In this document: piece after piece, positions 1,880-8,162 of the stretch
How the letters are laid out: the number at the start of each line of letters is the position of its first letter
Numbering within the stretch: the stretch's first letter is position 1
From: an uncultured Candidatus Saccharibacteria bacterium
Lineage (GTDB): Bacteria; Patescibacteriota; Dojkabacteria; JAHIVN01
Assembly (NCBI GenBank): GCA_964572065.1
Contig: CAZNER010000030.1
Coordinates: forward strand, 1 to 16,895
DNA: 16,895 bases
Reading direction: 5' to 3'
Position numbers and translations under genes: made by a program
Notes under the pieces: generated by a model
Told to the model about the DNA's origin: nothing
Database searches by the model: none
What the model saw: only the letters and a program-made list of their open reading frames with translations

Positions 1880-1977
1880 TAATAATTGAATCAATATCTT
1901 TCTGTAAGATATGTCGTTGAACTTTTTTGTAAAAGTTTATAAGGCTAATAATGGAAGATATTTCTTAGTATAAAAAC

Positions 1978-2096
1978 AGGGTATTTTTTGATCTCAAAAA
2001 ATACCCTAAAAAAAGATTAGGGAAATGTTAATTGCTCTAGTGAACAAACGTCATTCAACAGTTCCACCGCAGTAACATTTCCCTAAAACCCTAAAA
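1978..2096. repeat. family H composite structured element, copy 1
   Basis: Hairpin a is agggtatttttt / gatctc / aaaaaataccct (1978-2007), a 12-bp perfect stem with a 6-nt loop. A 10-nt spacer follows. Hairpin b is tagggaaatgtta (2018-2030) paired with taacatttcccta (2073-2085), a 13-bp perfect stem closing a 42-nt loop. The 3' end is then reiterated as aaa-cccta-aaa (2086-2096). The same architecture occurs at 6521-6624. Confidence 0.6.
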
Positions 2097-2241
2097 TTTA
2101 TACTATCTTAAGTATAGAAGACTAAGAAGGGTAATTGTTCTAGAGAATAGATGGTTTGATGGGGGAATTAGCAGGTTTCATATATTATTTATTAGGATTG
2201 AAAAATGGAGTCATTACAGGATAGAGAGATATTATTAGTAA

Positions 2242-2279: not shown

Positions 2280-2765
2280 ATGACAAGTCCAGATACACAA
2301 CAAGTAGTTACAGGAGAACAAGAAGCAGTTGATGTTTCACCAAAGAGACAAATAGAAGCATTATTTGTTTCTCAAGAAAGCGGTTTAGTTGCACCTGAGA
2401 TAATTGTCAGTGAAGGTGTTAATGACTACACTATAATTGTTGTAAAACATATAGATGTTAATACAGGTGTAGTAAATTGGAAATTTATTTCAGTTTTTTT
2501 ATATAGTGAAGACAGTGGTTTTGCGGTAACTCTATATACAACAGGTACTTATAGTACAATAGGTATACGAGGTACTGATATAGTAACTAATCCGGAAGTA
2601 GGAAGACAATTGGTTTACAATGGTGTTGATCTAGAGACTGGTATGCAGTATGTAGGAAAAGTGATGAATGTTGTTATTGAAGATGTTTTGACATTAGATA
2701 AAGTTATTGAAGGATATAGAGAAATCAAAAGAAGAATAAAAAATGGAGAATTTGATAAGAATTGA
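2280..2765 (+). CDS. hypothetical protein, small-protein family member C (161 aa)
   Basis: ORF track entry, ATG start, TGA stop, own promoter. Similarity to members A and B as described for those features. No known domain recognised. Confidence 0.7.
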   Translation: MTSPDTQQVVTGEQEAVDVSPKRQIEALFVSQESGLVAPEIIVSEGVNDYTIIVVKHIDVNTGVVNWKFISVFLYSEDSGFAVTLYTTGTYSTIGIRGTDIVTNPEVGRQLVYNGVDLETGMQYVGKVMNVVIEDVLTLDKVIEGYREIKRRIKNGEFDKN

Positions 2766-2837
2766 ATCTTTTTAGGTAAAGAGTTTGTGATATAGATACA
2801 ATATTAATTCCCGTTTAGAACACAAGTTGTATTAATA

Positions 2838-2921
2838 TTCCATTGTCAGTAATGGAACCAACAAATAGCGTTATAGGCGGATCCGCCTTGACTCACAAGG
2901 CGAGGCAGGTAATGGAATCAG
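2838..2921. repeat. family E GC-rich structured element, copy 1
   Basis: About 48% GC (hand count 40/84). Hairpin ttccatt-gtcagt-aatggaa (2838-2857) is followed by ccaac..atagcgtt. The GC hairpin cgccttg-actca-caaggcg (2884-2902) competes with the palindrome ggcggatccgcc (2876-2887). Then comes aggcgaggcag. The direct repeat gtaatggaacca (2849-2860) / gtaatggaatca (2909-2920) is 11/12 identical. The same ordered blocks occur at 16192-16306. Confidence 0.6.
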
Positions 2922-2938
2922 TCTTTAAGTGCTAAATT

Positions 2939-2958
2939 ATGCGATCAGGAGATCGCAT
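2939..2958 (-). terminator. hairpin immediately after the tyrS stop (putative terminator)
   Basis: atgcgatc-agga-gatcgcat has an 8-bp stem and starts 1 nt after the TAG stop (2960-2962). On the minus strand only a weak AAUUUA tract follows. A near-identical hairpin is at 6733-6752 in the opposite orientation. Confidence 0.5.
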
Positions 2959-2959
2959 T

Positions 2960-4249
2960 CTACTTAATTCTAACAAATTTTCTTTTGCCAACTTTAACGA
3001 CATTCCCCTTCTCCAGTTTAATTTTTTGTTCGAAGTCTTTTACTTTTTTACCTTCTATCTCTATTCCTCCTTGTTTTATTAGCCGTTTTGCTTCAGCATT
3101 ACTTGCTATTATTCCTTTTTTAACAAGTTCTTTCACTAACTCAAGTGCTGTTAATTCCTTTTTACACTTGATTTCTTTCATTTCATCAGGAGTCTCTCCT
3201 TTTTGTACAGTTTTTTCAAAATGTTCTTGAGCTTTTCGAGATATTTCTTCATCATTGAGCATCTTAACAATTTCAAATGCGAGCTGTTTTTTTAACAGCA
3301 TTTGTTTTCCTGATTTAATGCCTTTTTTGACTGTATTTAAGTCAATGTTAGTTAGTAATTCAAAACTTTCTAAAAGTTTTTCATCTGTCCATGACATAAT
3401 TTTTCCATACATATCTTCAGGAGCATCGAGAGATGAGATTGCATTACCAGTTGTTTTTCCCATTTTTTCTCCCTTTGTGTCAGTTAGGAGTTTTAATGTT
3501 AGAACAAACTTGTTTTTATTAGTGAGTTCTCTTGAAAGAGTCCTTCCTGTCAACATATTAAAGGTTTGATCTGAGCCTCCGACTTCAAGATCAACCTGCA
3601 TTACAGTACTATCAAATCCCTGCATTAACGGATACATTGTTTCATGAAGTCTTATTGGTTTCTCCTCTTTTAGTCTTGTTCTGAACATATCGTGGGATAA
3701 TATATTTTGAAGTGTAATTTTTCCCATTATCTGCAGCCAATCTTCTAATGTTACTTTTGATAACCAATCATAATTATTTAGAATCGTAATAGGATTATCC
3801 TTCCAGTCGAAATTCAATATTTTTGATGCTGTTGATTTATAATCCTTAAAGTTGTTCCAAACTTGTTGTTTTGTGAGAGGTTCGCGTGTGTATTGTTTGT
3901 CCGGATCTCCTATCATAGCTGTAAATCCGCCAATAAGAAATATCACTTGGTGTCCAAGTTTTTGAAATTGTGCTAATTTTCTCATCCAGATGAAATGCCC
4001 AACATGAAGGAAGTTTGCTGTAGGATCAATTCCTGTATAAAGTTTAATCCTTTTTCCTGACAGAAGAAGTTTTTTTAGATCCTTTTGTTTAGGAAAAATA
4101 TCTTTAACTCCTCGGGTTAATGCTTCATCGATTTTGTCAGGATCTGTAACAACATCCATTTGAGGTTCTTTTATAGATACCTTGTCAATATATTTATTCC
4201 ATATTTTTATTTCATTTGCTTTTTTTGATTTATTATTTTTCTTTTTCAT
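2960..4249 (-). CDS. tyrS: tyrosine--tRNA ligase
   Basis: Class I signatures are present: HIGH-type motif (LHVGH), KMSKS-type motif (KMGKT), a GIDPTA..LHVGH context and a C-terminal S4-like domain (..AEAKRLIKQGGIEIEGKKV). The N-terminus has a Lys-rich extension of about 30 aa. ATG at 4159 (MDVVTDP..) is an alternative start. Confidence 0.95.
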   Translation of the reverse strand: MKKKNNKSKKANEIKIWNKYIDKVSIKEPQMDVVTDPDKIDEALTRGVKDIFPKQKDLKKLLLSGKRIKLYTGIDPTANFLHVGHFIWMRKLAQFQKLGHQVIFLIGGFTAMIGDPDKQYTREPLTKQQVWNNFKDYKSTASKILNFDWKDNPITILNNYDWLSKVTLEDWLQIMGKITLQNILSHDMFRTRLKEEKPIRLHETMYPLMQGFDSTVMQVDLEVGGSDQTFNMLTGRTLSRELTNKNKFVLTLKLLTDTKGEKMGKTTGNAISSLDAPEDMYGKIMSWTDEKLLESFELLTNIDLNTVKKGIKSGKQMLLKKQLAFEIVKMLNDEEISRKAQEHFEKTVQKGETPDEMKEIKCKKELTALELVKELVKKGIIASNAEAKRLIKQGGIEIEGKKVKDFEQKIKLEKGNVVKVGKRKFVRIK

Positions 4250-4380: not shown

Positions 4381-4615
4381 TAAATAATTAACCCTCATTT
4401 TTATACCAGTGTTTGATATAAAAACAAGGGTCAATTGAGATAATTCGTAATTCGCATTTTGGCGGTACCACCTTTGTTTATTATTATATTACTATAATAA
4501 CCTCATTTCCCATTAAGTTGGAAATTCTTATTTAAATATTTAAATGTATTTCATCTTTTTGTAAACTCTCAGTCTGTGTTTACTTTCTGTATATTTAAGG
4601 ATTACTTAAAACTAT
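4381..4615 (-). promoter_or_regulatory. T-box riboswitch leader (tyrosine specifier) of tyrS
   Basis: The minus strand reads AAACAAAGGUGGUACCGCCAAAA (plus-strand ggcggtaccacc at 4461-4472), matching the conserved T-box core GGUGGUACCGC. The variable base in UGGU predicts discriminator A, as in tRNA-Tyr. UAC followed by A (plus-strand gta at 4546-4548) sits on the 3' side of a stem-I-like structure whose upper hairpin is gtaaac..gagag..gtttac (4561-4583). A terminator follows and the leader lies directly upstream of an aaRS gene. Confidence 0.75.
4392..4430 (-). terminator. T-box leader intrinsic terminator
   Basis: The minus strand reads cccttgtttttata-tcaaacactgg-tataaaaatgaggg, 14 bp including 2 G-U pairs, followed by UUAAUUAUUU. 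Its 5' arm can instead pair with AAACAAAGG just upstream of the T-box (8 of 9 pairs), as expected for an antiterminator switch. Confidence 0.6.
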
Positions 4616-4620
4616 AATTA

Positions 4621-6355: not shown

Positions 6356-6520
6356 AGATAAAATGTTTGTTAGTAAAGATTAGAAAAAATTTTCTTCGCA
6401 TAATGGTTTTATTACATGTCTCGATTTACGAGTTTATGAAATTATACATTTTAATTAATGTAATGATTGTTATTAAATATATCCAGTTTATTATTAAATT
6501 ATATTTAAGTTTCTTCCTTT

Positions 6521-6624
6521 GTACTTTTGGCCGCAAAAGTACCAAAACTCGTGGGGTTGATTAAGTCCCACAGTAAACAATCTAATTGCCGTGAACATCC
6601 GGACGTAATCAACCCCACACCCCG
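6521..6624. repeat. family H composite structured element, copy 2
   Basis: Hairpin a is gtactttt / ggccgc / aaaagtac (6521-6542), 8 bp with a 6-nt loop. An 8-nt spacer follows. Hairpin b is gtggggttgatta (6551-6563) paired with taatcaaccccac (6606-6618), a 13-bp perfect stem closing a 42-nt loop, extendable by gtcc/ggac. The C-tract is then reiterated as a-cccc-g (6619-6624). Loop positions 9-19 read agtaaacaatc here and agtgaacaaac in copy 1, 9/11 identical in the same register. Confidence 0.6.
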
Positions 6625-6732
6625 ATGATATAACAATTATCAATCAGATTTTTTAACAAGAAAATATATAAAATATCCCGAACTATAATAATTTATTAGA
6701 CATTTTTTATAAACAAAAAGAGGAAGATAAAA

Positions 6733-7695: not shown

Positions 7696-8162
7696 TAATC
7701 AATTTTGTCTGATTTGTTTTTCCAAATTTTGAAAAGTTCTAGACATTCCTTATGGCAGAAATCTGGAATTGTTTTAAGTTTACGTTCCTCTTGGGCTTTT
7801 TTAAATTCATCATAGATGAATTGGTCATCAAAATCTATTTCAGCTGCTTCATATCTTGTACAACCATAGTATAATTTATCAATTCTAGCCCAATAAATTG
7901 CTGCAAGGCACATAGGACATGGTTCACAGGTAGAATAAATTTCGCAGCCGTCTAATTTAAAAGAATTGAGCTTTTTACAAGCCTTTCTTATAGCATTTAT
8001 CTCAGCATGAGCCGTAGGATCATTATCTTTTACTACAGTATTATTACCAAATGAAATTAATTTATCATTTTTAACAATGCAGGCTCCAAATGGTCCCTCT
8101 CCTACATTCTGTAGTCCTTTTTTGGCTTTCTTTATAGCTTGAAACATATATTTTTTATCCAT
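7692..8162 (-). CDS. guaD: guanine deaminase (CDA-fold, GuaD type)
   Basis: 156 aa with the zinc motifs HAE and PCPMC. The GPFGA.IVK, NDPTAHAE..AIRKACK, Y.(S/T)CEPCPMC..AIYWAR and FDD.FIY.E blocks match my recollection of Bacillus subtilis GuaD, which is also 156 aa. A TadA-like tRNA deaminase is less likely because of the FDD.FIY tail. Confidence 0.8.
   Translation of the reverse strand: MDKKYMFQAIKKAKKGLQNVGEGPFGACIVKNDKLISFGNNTVVKDNDPTAHAEINAIRKACKKLNSFKLDGCEIYSTCEPCPMCLAAIYWARIDKLYYGCTRYEAAEIDFDDQFIYDEFKKAQEERKLKTIPDFCHKECLELFKIWKNKSDKIDY

Follow-up and report, generated by a model that had tools for sequence, protein, structure and literature searches.

The question raised by this locus is whether two sets of hairpins in separate intergenic regions of one contig belong together, and if they do, what kind of element they represent. 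The window, as the whole stretch of DNA analysed is called here, comprises 16,895 nucleotides of the forward strand of contig CAZNER010000030.1 from an uncultured Candidatus Saccharibacteria bacterium of the Dojkabacteria lineage. An earlier note had described two loci in it, each with a small hairpin followed after a short spacer by a perfect stem with a 42-nucleotide loop and a reiterated C tract, and had named them Family H. These loci are two copies of a real multicopy family of three-hairpin repeats, which is restricted to one lineage within the DNA sampled. It is a structured intergenic repeat or a family of sibling small RNAs, and no described family matches it.

Read in the sense in which the element was first seen, the unit is about 150 nucleotides long in all copies and consists of hairpin 1, a linker, hairpin 2, a tail, and hairpin 3. 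The parts of the two copies contained in the window are listed below.

Copy 1, window 1957 to 2116
1957 to 1962, plus strand: -10-like box GATATT, 15 nucleotides upstream of hairpin 1, weak, in AT-rich context and suggestive
1978 to 1991 and 1994 to 2007, plus strand: hairpin 1, AGGGTATTTTTTGA-TC-TCAAAAAATACCCT, 14 perfect pairs with T-run and A-run arms
2008 to 2016, plus strand: A-rich linker AAAAAAAGA of 9 nucleotides, which reads as the U run after hairpin 2 on the minus strand
2017 to 2030 and 2073 to 2086, plus strand: outer stem of hairpin 2, TTAGGGAAATGTTA/TAACATTTCCCTAA, 14 perfect base pairs with 42 nucleotides between the arms
2031, plus strand: bulged A of hairpin 2
2032 to 2035 and 2069 to 2072, plus strand: inner stem of hairpin 2, TTGC/GCAG
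2036 to 2068, plus strand: inner loop of hairpin 2, 33 nucleotides
2087 to 2096, plus strand: tail AACCCTAAAA, repeating the CCCTAAAA end of the 3' arm and containing the family motif ACCYC
2099 to 2116, plus strand: hairpin 3, TATACT-ATCTTA-AGTATA, predicted fold

Copy 2, window 6500 to 6657
6500 to 6647, plus strand: whole homologous unit from TATATT to AATCAG, from local alignment with copy 3
6521 to 6542, plus strand: hairpin 1, GTACTTTTG-GCCG-CAAAAGTAC, 9 pairs
6543 to 6550, plus strand: linker CAAAACTC, 8 nucleotides
6551 to 6563 and 6606 to 6618, plus strand: outer stem of hairpin 2, GTGGGGTTGATTA/TAATCAACCCCAC, 13 perfect base pairs with 42 nucleotides between the arms
6564 and 6605, plus strand: A opposite G, between outer and inner stems of hairpin 2
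6565 to 6568 and 6601 to 6604, plus strand: inner stem of hairpin 2, GTCC/GGAC, with a 32-nucleotide inner loop
6619 to 6625, plus strand: tail ACCCCGA, in which CCCC is repeated after the stem end CCCCAC
6626 to 6642, plus strand: hairpin 3, TGATA-TAACAAT-TATCA, predicted fold
6648 to 6657, plus strand: run of six T, after hairpin 3 and ATCAG, a run that is absent in copy 3

Hairpin 2 of copy 1 with its 42-nucleotide loop and reiterated C tract, and the geometry of copy 2 (hairpin 1, 8-nucleotide spacer, 13-base-pair stem, 42-nucleotide loop, C tract), were confirmed. The same holds for the terminator-like appearance of hairpin 1 of copy 1 on the minus strand, where a GTTTTTAT tail follows, and for its lack in hairpin 1 of copy 2. 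The description of hairpin 1 of copy 1 as 12 base pairs with a 6-nucleotide loop stands as a conservative reading; there are actually 14 perfect pairs. Not part of the earlier description are the one-base bulge and the inner stem of 4 base pairs in which both long hairpins continue, and the weak third hairpin behind each of them.

A covariance model, R1, was built from the two window copies alone and used to search extra DNA of the host genome, which was reached by a genome walk in which flanking proteins were found via a profile of unrelated proteins and their contigs were then taken. The non-redundant host sample amounted to 56,958 nucleotides; the comparison set was 1.9 Mb of loci from other bacteria, including the Dojkabacteria-like relatives L009, L089, L187, and L188. 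A further locus, L185, was rejected as part of the host genome and assigned to another organism because its G+C content is 50%. R1 retrieved copy 3 (L183 541 to 398, minus strand, 60 bits, E ~1e-13) and copy 4 (L183 222 to 340, plus strand, 26.5 bits, E ~1e-4) at a locus of the same genome, L183, which lies about 38 kb past the right end of the window and had been fetched after the model was built. Both are situated in a 970-nucleotide divergent intergenic region adjoining an oxoacid:ferredoxin oxidoreductase operon. Just upstream of copy 4, at L183 ~121 to 225, there is a decayed fifth copy, which aligns locally to copy 2 with a score of 54.5 (shuffles 29 +/- 5). The host sample thus contains at least four intact copies and one decayed copy, about one intact copy per 14 kb, in both orientations and with three of them clustered in one intergenic region. 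R1 gave no match in 0.9 Mb of other loci or in the first 31 kb of extra host DNA. The second model, R2, was built from all four copies and, like R1, defines the hairpin 2 core; it yielded no additional copy in the 56,958 nucleotides and no match in the 1.9 Mb, and no homologue was seen in the four relatives and ~160 other loci. Pattern scans and BLAST searches of phage, plasmid, and viral collections detected nothing similar.

A census of the 1.9 Mb showed how rare the arrangement is. Perfect stems of at least 11 base pairs with loops of 30 to 55 nucleotides occur about once per 35 kb there, and none is preceded within 12 nucleotides by a small perfect hairpin of 8 base pairs or more. A search of ~48 kb of the host genome for perfect short-loop hairpins with 9 or more base pairs yielded only eight, and among these the pattern GTAYTTTT..AAAARTAC is confined to hairpin 1 of copies 1 and 2. 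The loops of copies 1 and 2 match in register at 17 of 42 positions (shuffle p ~0.03), and the loop match of 9 out of 11 noticed earlier was recovered as the best 11-nucleotide window (p ~0.003). The R1 matches together with the census support the view that the two loci form one family and that their shared geometry is not a matter of chance; a coincidence of unrelated hairpins is excluded because copies 3 and 4 were predicted successfully and because of the census.

The structural details shared by the copies are considerable. Hairpin 1 has a 5' arm TAYTTTT and a 3' arm AAAARTA in all of them and is followed by an A-rich linker of 8 to 9 nucleotides common to all four. Hairpin 2 consists of an outer stem of 13 to 14 base pairs, a one-base bulge, an inner stem of 4 base pairs, and a loop of 32 to 36 nucleotides, with 42 to 45 nucleotides between the outer arms. 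The outer stem is uninterrupted (13 to 14 pairs) in three copies and has one C.T mismatch in copy 4. Its feet read TTAGGG/CCCTAA, GTGGGG/CCCCAC, or CTGGAG/CTCCAG; the bulged base is A, A, A, and G in copies 1 to 4, each time at the same stem position, and the inner stem is TTGC/GCAG, GTCC/GGAC (two copies), or TTTG/CAAA. Each hairpin 2 loop carries the motif AAC-N3-C twice. In all copies the tail begins with ACCYC; it echoes the last bases of the 3' arm in copies 1 to 3 and does so only loosely in copy 4. Hairpin 3 is weak and differs in sequence each time; its predicted position is the same in all four. The family comprises three scaffold types which are less than 50% identical to each other, and its members stand out as islands of 38 to 47% G+C within intergenic DNA of ~20% G+C.

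This geometry, including bulge position and inner stem, is kept by compensatory changes. In the outer stem of hairpin 2, 98% of the cells are paired and nine of the 13 pairs show two-sided changes, counts which rest on three independent stems and on an alignment fitted to the structure. The pairing level was reached by none of 500 shuffles, and registers slid against each other pair at 34 to 46%. Neither the shared bulge position nor the matching inner stem depends on this fit of the alignment, however. All four units fold into the succession of hairpins 1, 2, and 3, with z-scores between -3.6 and -9.4 in the plus sense. Family H has been kept foldable as a single strand by selection, and its members are most likely small RNA genes. 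An alternative which does not involve single strands would be sites in double-stranded DNA, either palindromes bound by a protein or recombination sites of the attC type. The palindrome TAYTTTT..AAAARTA of hairpin 1, conserved in all copies, would suit such a site, and a tyrosine recombinase gene lies ~9 kb past the right end of the window. Co-varying 13-base-pair arms 42 base pairs apart are unlike an operator, however, and the hallmarks of attC are absent: there are no RYYYAAC/GTTRRRY cores, no unpaired central spacer, and no IntI, the sole recombinase seen being the 271-amino acid Xer-like protein encoded by the gene just mentioned. Taken together with mere coincidence, double-stranded sites are highly improbable.

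Two pairs of copies show contrasting patterns of divergence. The loops of copies 1 and 4 are identical at 26 of 42 positions, and their 5' arms agree at only 5 of 13 aligned positions; despite this divergence of the arms copy 4 keeps 12 of the 13 pairs, as counted on the alignment. Such a pattern would be expected for a structured RNA. Copies 2 and 3 can be aligned over 148 nucleotides from the TATATT box to AATCAG. Not one of the 52 stem nucleotides differs, and of the 122 aligned positions outside the loop centre 11 are mismatched, while the central 24 nucleotides of the hairpin 2 loop agree at only 9 positions. The loop differences form one block of 13 and one of 6 nucleotides, and the differences as a whole are concentrated in the loop of hairpin 1, the loop centre of hairpin 2, and the hairpin 3 region. 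This mosaic conservation does not fit young copies, because those would diverge uniformly little, nor neutral decay, because that would diverge uniformly much. Rather, it indicates that the stems are under selection, that the loop was replaced, or both.

A similar relation may exist between copy 1 and a locus outside the sampled DNA. Contigs assembled with k=31 (Logan) from three independent sequencing runs all end at window position 2093, and contigs from two of these runs start at 2075. The stretch concerned is the following.

2064 to 2104, plus strand: 41-nucleotide stretch inferred to recur, covering the end of the hairpin 2 loop, the 3' arm, the tail, and the 5' arm of hairpin 3

From the breaks at 2093 and 2075 it follows that a second copy of these 41 nucleotides with different left and right flanks should be present in the genome or in the community. 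Judged from this geometry of the assembly graph, the second locus would share the 3' half of copy 1 without its loop centre and would carry CCACCGCAGTAACATTTCCCTAAAACCCTAAAATTTATACT, which would make it a sibling repeating the pattern of copies 2 and 3. Assemblies with large k read through the region. A change in the copy number of CCCTAAAA or an inversion of the loop was considered as a cause of the breaks and rejected; these events predict breaks at 2096/2081, 2088/2089, or 2073, not at 2093/2075.

A further relation between members was seen in copy 3, the loop centre of which (L183 459 to 469) has AGATTAGGGAA, identical to window positions 2014 to 2024 of copy 1, i.e., to the end of the linker and the 5' foot of hairpin 2. 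The segment is therefore complementary to the 3' arm of copy 1 and its CCCTAA tail. Although 46% of shuffles give an 11-nucleotide match at some point in the sample, a match that falls on another family member is uncommon. The match could be due to chance, to recombination between members, or to pairing between members.

The divergence of the copies, their number, and their distribution also bear on the possibility that Family H is a selfish repeat of the REP/REPIN type or related to miniature inverted-repeat transposable elements (MITEs). Hairpins of single-stranded DNA would then be recognised by a transposase (RAYT or IS200-like Y1) or a recombinase, and the copies would be spread or homogenised at the DNA level with no role for RNA. 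In line with this are the lineage specificity of the family and its absence from syntenic or related loci of relatives, the clustering of three copies, one of them decayed, in both orientations, the identical stems of copies 2 and 3, and the putative recurrence of 41 nucleotides of copy 1 elsewhere. The gap downstream of tsaC is also longer in the window, 516 nucleotides as against ~180 in L009. REP elements occur as many near-identical copies per genome; the 56,958 nucleotides sampled here contain four intact members and one decayed member, with copies 2 and 3 near-identical outside the loop. Hairpins recognised by structure would likewise show compensatory changes. In L009, the closest relative, an IS200-like/RAYT-type Y1 transposase gene (L009 11270 to 11893) lies between tyrS and small-protein genes, at the place of copy 1 relative to tyrS; palindromes of the form GTAGGGA(T/C)(G/A)GAATATAT are found within and beside it, and the small-protein genes there can hardly be aligned with those of the window. 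The 57-kb host sample, on the other hand, contains no transposase gene of any kind, RAYT, Y1, and HUH types included. The 148-nucleotide unit shared by copies 2 and 3 (TATATTT to AATCAG) ends without terminal inverted repeats, target-site duplications, or a flanking direct repeat, and the arms of hairpin 2 are internal to it, an anatomy on which an identity as a MITE was rejected. Hairpin 2 as an independent MITE was rejected on the same grounds; it is not mobile alone, because copies 2 and 3 also share hairpin 1 and both flanks. The REP hallmark GTAG on the 5' side of the palindrome foot is not present as such, hairpin 1 having GTAY/ATAC inside its stem. Three scaffold types less than half identical are unlike a recent burst, and loops saturated with changes next to untouched stems in copies 2 and 3 are unlike young or decaying copies. 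A selfish repeat is a less likely explanation than small RNA genes, yet the main rival to them.

Known RNAs and genes were searched for at the loci. Rfam 15 gave no hit at E<=1 with the whole window. With the two intergenic regions alone at E<=10 only hairpin-shaped noise appeared (e.g., mir-5615 with 17.8 against a cut-off of 82 bits), and nothing was found on the family copies in the L183 intergenic region. Weak hits to SCARNA24 and TtnuHACA8, of the H/ACA type, reflect the hairpin-hinge-hairpin shape alone and were rejected. With the phage, plasmid, and viral collections empty as well, the view that no known RNA family or repeat is matched has been upheld, with the proviso that the sensitivity of Rfam is low in this genome, where the evident T-box leader of tyrS scores only 19.6 against a 93-bit cut-off. 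This leader is situated upstream of tyrS at window 4388 to 4617 on the minus strand. It has the conserved GGTGGTACCGC box at ~4475 to 4455 and a terminator hairpin at 4434 to 4388 (CCCT..A/T run..AGGG, followed by TTATTTAC). Its 19.6 bits (E 0.028) were obtained with the region alone, it was missed in the whole-window search, and two assemblies break contigs within it, at 4420 and at 4498 to 4500. Transfer RNA and tmRNA were rejected since ARAGORN remained empty at the loci, also in relaxed, intron-allowing, and mitochondrial-type runs. Coding for a protein was rejected too. An open frame persists on the minus strand of copies 2 and 3, and a 16-codon open reading frame within the loop of copy 1 has no counterpart in the other copies; Family H is non-coding because copy 1 has stops in every frame of both strands.

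The strand from which a transcript would be made was judged from several signals. Fold z-scores on the plus and minus strands of copies 1 to 4 are -8.2/-5.4, -3.6/-2.3, -6.4/-5.1, and -9.4/-7.1 and all favour plus, as does the inner stem of copy 1, whose single U.G pair would be C.A on the other strand. The homology block of copies 2 and 3 also favours plus, with a -10-like box at its beginning (TGATATATT, or TGnTATATT, in copy 3) and the T run of copy 2 immediately beyond its end. A (G/T)ATATT box lies 12 to 15 nucleotides upstream of hairpin 1 in copies 1 to 3, in AT-rich context and suggestive only. The minus strand is favoured by a run of four to seven U found 2 to 3 nucleotides after hairpin 2 in all four copies, by the true terminator shape of hairpin 1 of copy 1, and by -10-like boxes 8 to 10 nucleotides upstream of the G-rich foot in copies 1 to 3. 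Promoter logic was rejected as a means to fix the strand, as -10-like boxes occur on both strands. On balance the plus strand is somewhat favoured as the functional one.

The same signals could belong to an element acting in cis on the transcripts of its neighbours, without a function in trans: a terminator or insulator, a stabiliser of 3' ends, or a carrier of outward promoters as in Correia or BOX elements. Hairpin 1 of copy 1 makes a good intrinsic terminator on the minus strand, the U run follows every hairpin 2 there, the hairpin 3 regions carry -10-like hexamers facing the downstream genes (e.g., TATACT and TGATATAAC), and other intergenic hairpins without U tails exist in the host genome. 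The pattern of a Rho-independent terminator, however, is present only in hairpin 1 of copy 1 on the minus strand, and hairpin 1 of copies 2, 3, and 4 has no U tail on either strand. A 42-nucleotide loop is unfavourable for an intrinsic terminator. A minus-strand terminator would have no transcript to end, because copies 1 and 2 lie between plus-strand genes. A simple terminator of upstream genes was rejected as well: both genes that flank copies 3 and 4 begin on the side of these copies, with nothing to terminate, and copies 1 and 2 begin as far as 99 and 165 nucleotides past the upstream stop codons. The neighbouring genes of the copies are unrelated. A purely cis-acting element is improbable on these grounds.

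The explanation which we consider best, tentatively and with somewhat less than even confidence, is that the copies of Family H are genes of sibling small RNAs, structured and non-coding, specific to one lineage and each transcribed independently. That the elements are transcribed, on the strand favoured above, and that they act by base pairing, we infer. A transcript would start a few bases upstream of hairpin 1, on the plus strand, from the (G/T)ATATT box. The invariant stems, the linker, and the tail would form a scaffold that serves stability or processing or binds a protein partner. The part differing between copies with the same scaffold, the large hairpin 2 loop, would be a copy-specific recognition surface, to which the C-rich tail may add. 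The block shared by copies 2 and 3 resembles a transcription unit in that it extends from the TATATT box to the T run; for copies 3 and 4 the divergent intergenic region means that no upstream gene needs a terminator. A structure backed by compensatory changes, as in small RNAs acting in trans, is present. Several points weigh against sibling small RNAs. The promoter-like and terminator-like signals are weak, lie in AT-rich DNA, and occur on both strands, and the T run after hairpin 3 exists only in copy 2. The pair counts of hairpin 2 are subject to the reservations given with them. Within the 57-kb sample the loops are complementary to possible targets no more than at background level; an 11-nucleotide match is obtained with 46% of shuffled loops. 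Finally, the absence from relatives, the clustering of three copies with a decayed member, the occurrence in both orientations, and the putative exact repeat of 41 nucleotides of copy 1 fit a selfish repeat at least as well.

The copies might also be stand-alone programmable guide RNAs, with hairpin 1, the stems of hairpin 2, and the ACCYC tail as a constant scaffold recognised by a protein and a loop segment of ~24 nucleotides as exchangeable guide, i.e., a dispersed relative of TIGR-Tas or box C/D-like RNAs. TIGR-Tas units have variable yet consistently palindromic stems and loops with two spacers of 8 to 12 nucleotides and short motifs repeated twice, and they have been described in phages and in bacteria of the candidate phyla radiation, where a specific clade is tied to stem arrays (PMC12045711). 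This description fits Family H qualitatively: a variable palindromic stem closes the unit, the loops measure 42 to 45 nucleotides with AAC-N3-C twice in each, the same scaffold is combined with different loops in copies 2 and 3 as well as in copy 1 and its putative sibling, and three copies are clustered in one intergenic region. The twofold AAC-N3-C, however, is not accompanied on either strand by the succession C-spacer-D-linker-C-spacer-D, i.e., by box C (CCA) and box D (UG) around two spacers. Copies 2 and 3 differ by one long variable block of 13 nucleotides and not by two. No tandem array is formed; the copies are dispersed singletons with their own hairpins 1 and 3, at most three per intergenic region and in mixed orientation. 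No gene in the 57-kb sample encodes a Nop-domain (Tas) protein, and this includes the orphans, which were scanned at E<=1. Guide RNAs of this kind are highly improbable.

The window has a G+C content of 31% and contains a cluster of small orphan proteins, tyrS (minus strand), a Trp/Tyr-type permease, tsaC, a hydrolase, a deaminase, a CHASE2 cyclase, and a surface protein of 1774 amino acids. DNA identical to it is contained in several JGI, ENA, and Logan assemblies, but close relatives were not found in the collections searched: the nearest species representative is a Candidatus Dojkabacteria metagenome-assembled genome with a TyrRS identity of 70%, and the closest metagenome contig is 71% identical. 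The suggestion that copies mark cassette boundaries in paralog clusters did not hold, as the new copies lie away from paralogs and only one of the intergenic gaps of the small-protein cluster has a copy. A link to the small-protein paralogs was rejected for the same reason; the 161-amino acid protein downstream of copy 1 is an orphan without any other cluster. This protein (window 2280 to 2765) and a 144-amino acid orphan (801 to 1235) are paralogs sharing the motifs Y.(E/T)IGI.G, GVD.E, and VI..YRE, and neither has a Pfam domain or a homologue in a collection of 5.8 billion clusters.

Other elements were seen alongside. Between the convergent 3' ends of the 161-amino acid gene and tyrS (window 2800 to 2960) there is a G+C-rich run of hairpins (TTCCATT..AATGGAA, AGGCGGATCCGCCT, and ATGCGATC-AGGA-GATCGCAT), none of them with a U tail, which suggests that host transcripts often end without U tracts. 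Upstream of the oxidoreductase operon, in the host (L183 700 to 775) and in a relative (L187 28 to 100; oxidoreductase subunit 75% identical), two conserved hairpins occur, ATCTCCC..GGGGGAT and ATCCTCC-GAAA-GGAGGAT with a T run, which may be a leader or attenuator. In the host ~250 nucleotides with another 13-base-pair long-loop hairpin (L183 775 to 845) separate this pair from the start codon. At a locus about 15 kb past the right end of the window (L169 4860 to 5340) an intergenic region of ~480 nucleotides looks G+C-rich and has many hairpins, e.g., AGGATTATGAG and CTCATAATCCT 50 nucleotides apart. Even at E<=1 nothing in Rfam matches this region, which may be a divergent large non-coding RNA. 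The gene for the 271-amino acid tyrosine recombinase lies, with a tRNA gene (7735 to 7821, minus strand) and three 143-base-pair tandem repeats each carrying TCAAATTTTAT..ATAAAATTTGA, at L169 6589 to 8205, possibly the edge of an integrated element. In Levybacteria-like DNA (L023 3668 to 3792, also L106, L107, L112, and L113) a nested structure directly upstream of tyrS has a 14-base-pair stem with a 41-nucleotide loop, a second hairpin, and an outer pairing AAGTATACC/GGTATACTT; its sequence is unrelated to Family H.

Non-coding RNAs and repeats of the bacteria of the candidate phyla radiation, which have tiny genomes, are almost uncharted. If transcribed, Family H would be among the first families of small RNAs with several paralogs defined in this group, with an unusual design of constant scaffold and variable loop. 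If it is a mobile element of single-stranded DNA, it attests to active repeat dynamics within a streamlined genome and would also account for the breaks of short-k assemblies at such sites. With either reading the covariance models R1 and R2 can be used on complete genomes.

Compared with known systems Family H shares traits with several. With integron attC sites it has in common that structure prevails over sequence, that an extrahelical base occupies a fixed position, and that the terminal loop is variable, and copy 1 sits among small orphan genes; it differs in having no R''/R' core sites, unpaired central spacer, or IntI, and in that only one gap of the small-gene cluster has a copy while the others adjoin housekeeping operons. 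Like TIGR-Tas it occurs in bacteria of the candidate phyla radiation and combines a variable palindromic stem with a loop of ~40 nucleotides containing twice-repeated motifs and variable segments, but it has no tandem array, adjacent Nop-domain gene, or recognisable CCA/UG boxes, and adds hairpins 1 and 3. REP/REPIN elements with their RAYTs are likewise multicopy, strictly intergenic hairpin repeats, species-specific, clustered, and in both orientations, and their arms are conserved while the spacer between them is more variable. In Family H, however, neither arm of hairpin 2 is a palindromic REP in itself, a free 5' GTAG is missing, and the unit is a fixed module of ~150 nucleotides with three hairpins and three scaffold types. 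Correia (CREE), BOX, RUP, ERIC, and Rickettsia palindromic elements, which are MITE-like structured repeats of small genomes, are similar in being intergenic, 100 to 200 nucleotides long, and able to form long stem-loops when transcribed, and they can carry promoters or terminators affecting neighbouring genes; the unit of Family H is without terminal inverted repeats and target-site duplications, and its copies are far more divergent with the geometry strictly kept. Families of sibling small RNAs such as LhrC1-5, the csRNAs, and those of the RsaE/RoxS type comprise several paralogous RNAs of ~100 to 150 nucleotides per genome with a shared hairpin architecture and single-stranded C-rich motifs, each having its own promoter and 3' hairpin. 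What is conserved in them is a C-rich seed directed against Shine-Dalgarno sequences; in the genes inspected here the Shine-Dalgarno signal is slight. Family H differs from these siblings in that its most variable part is the large apical loop.

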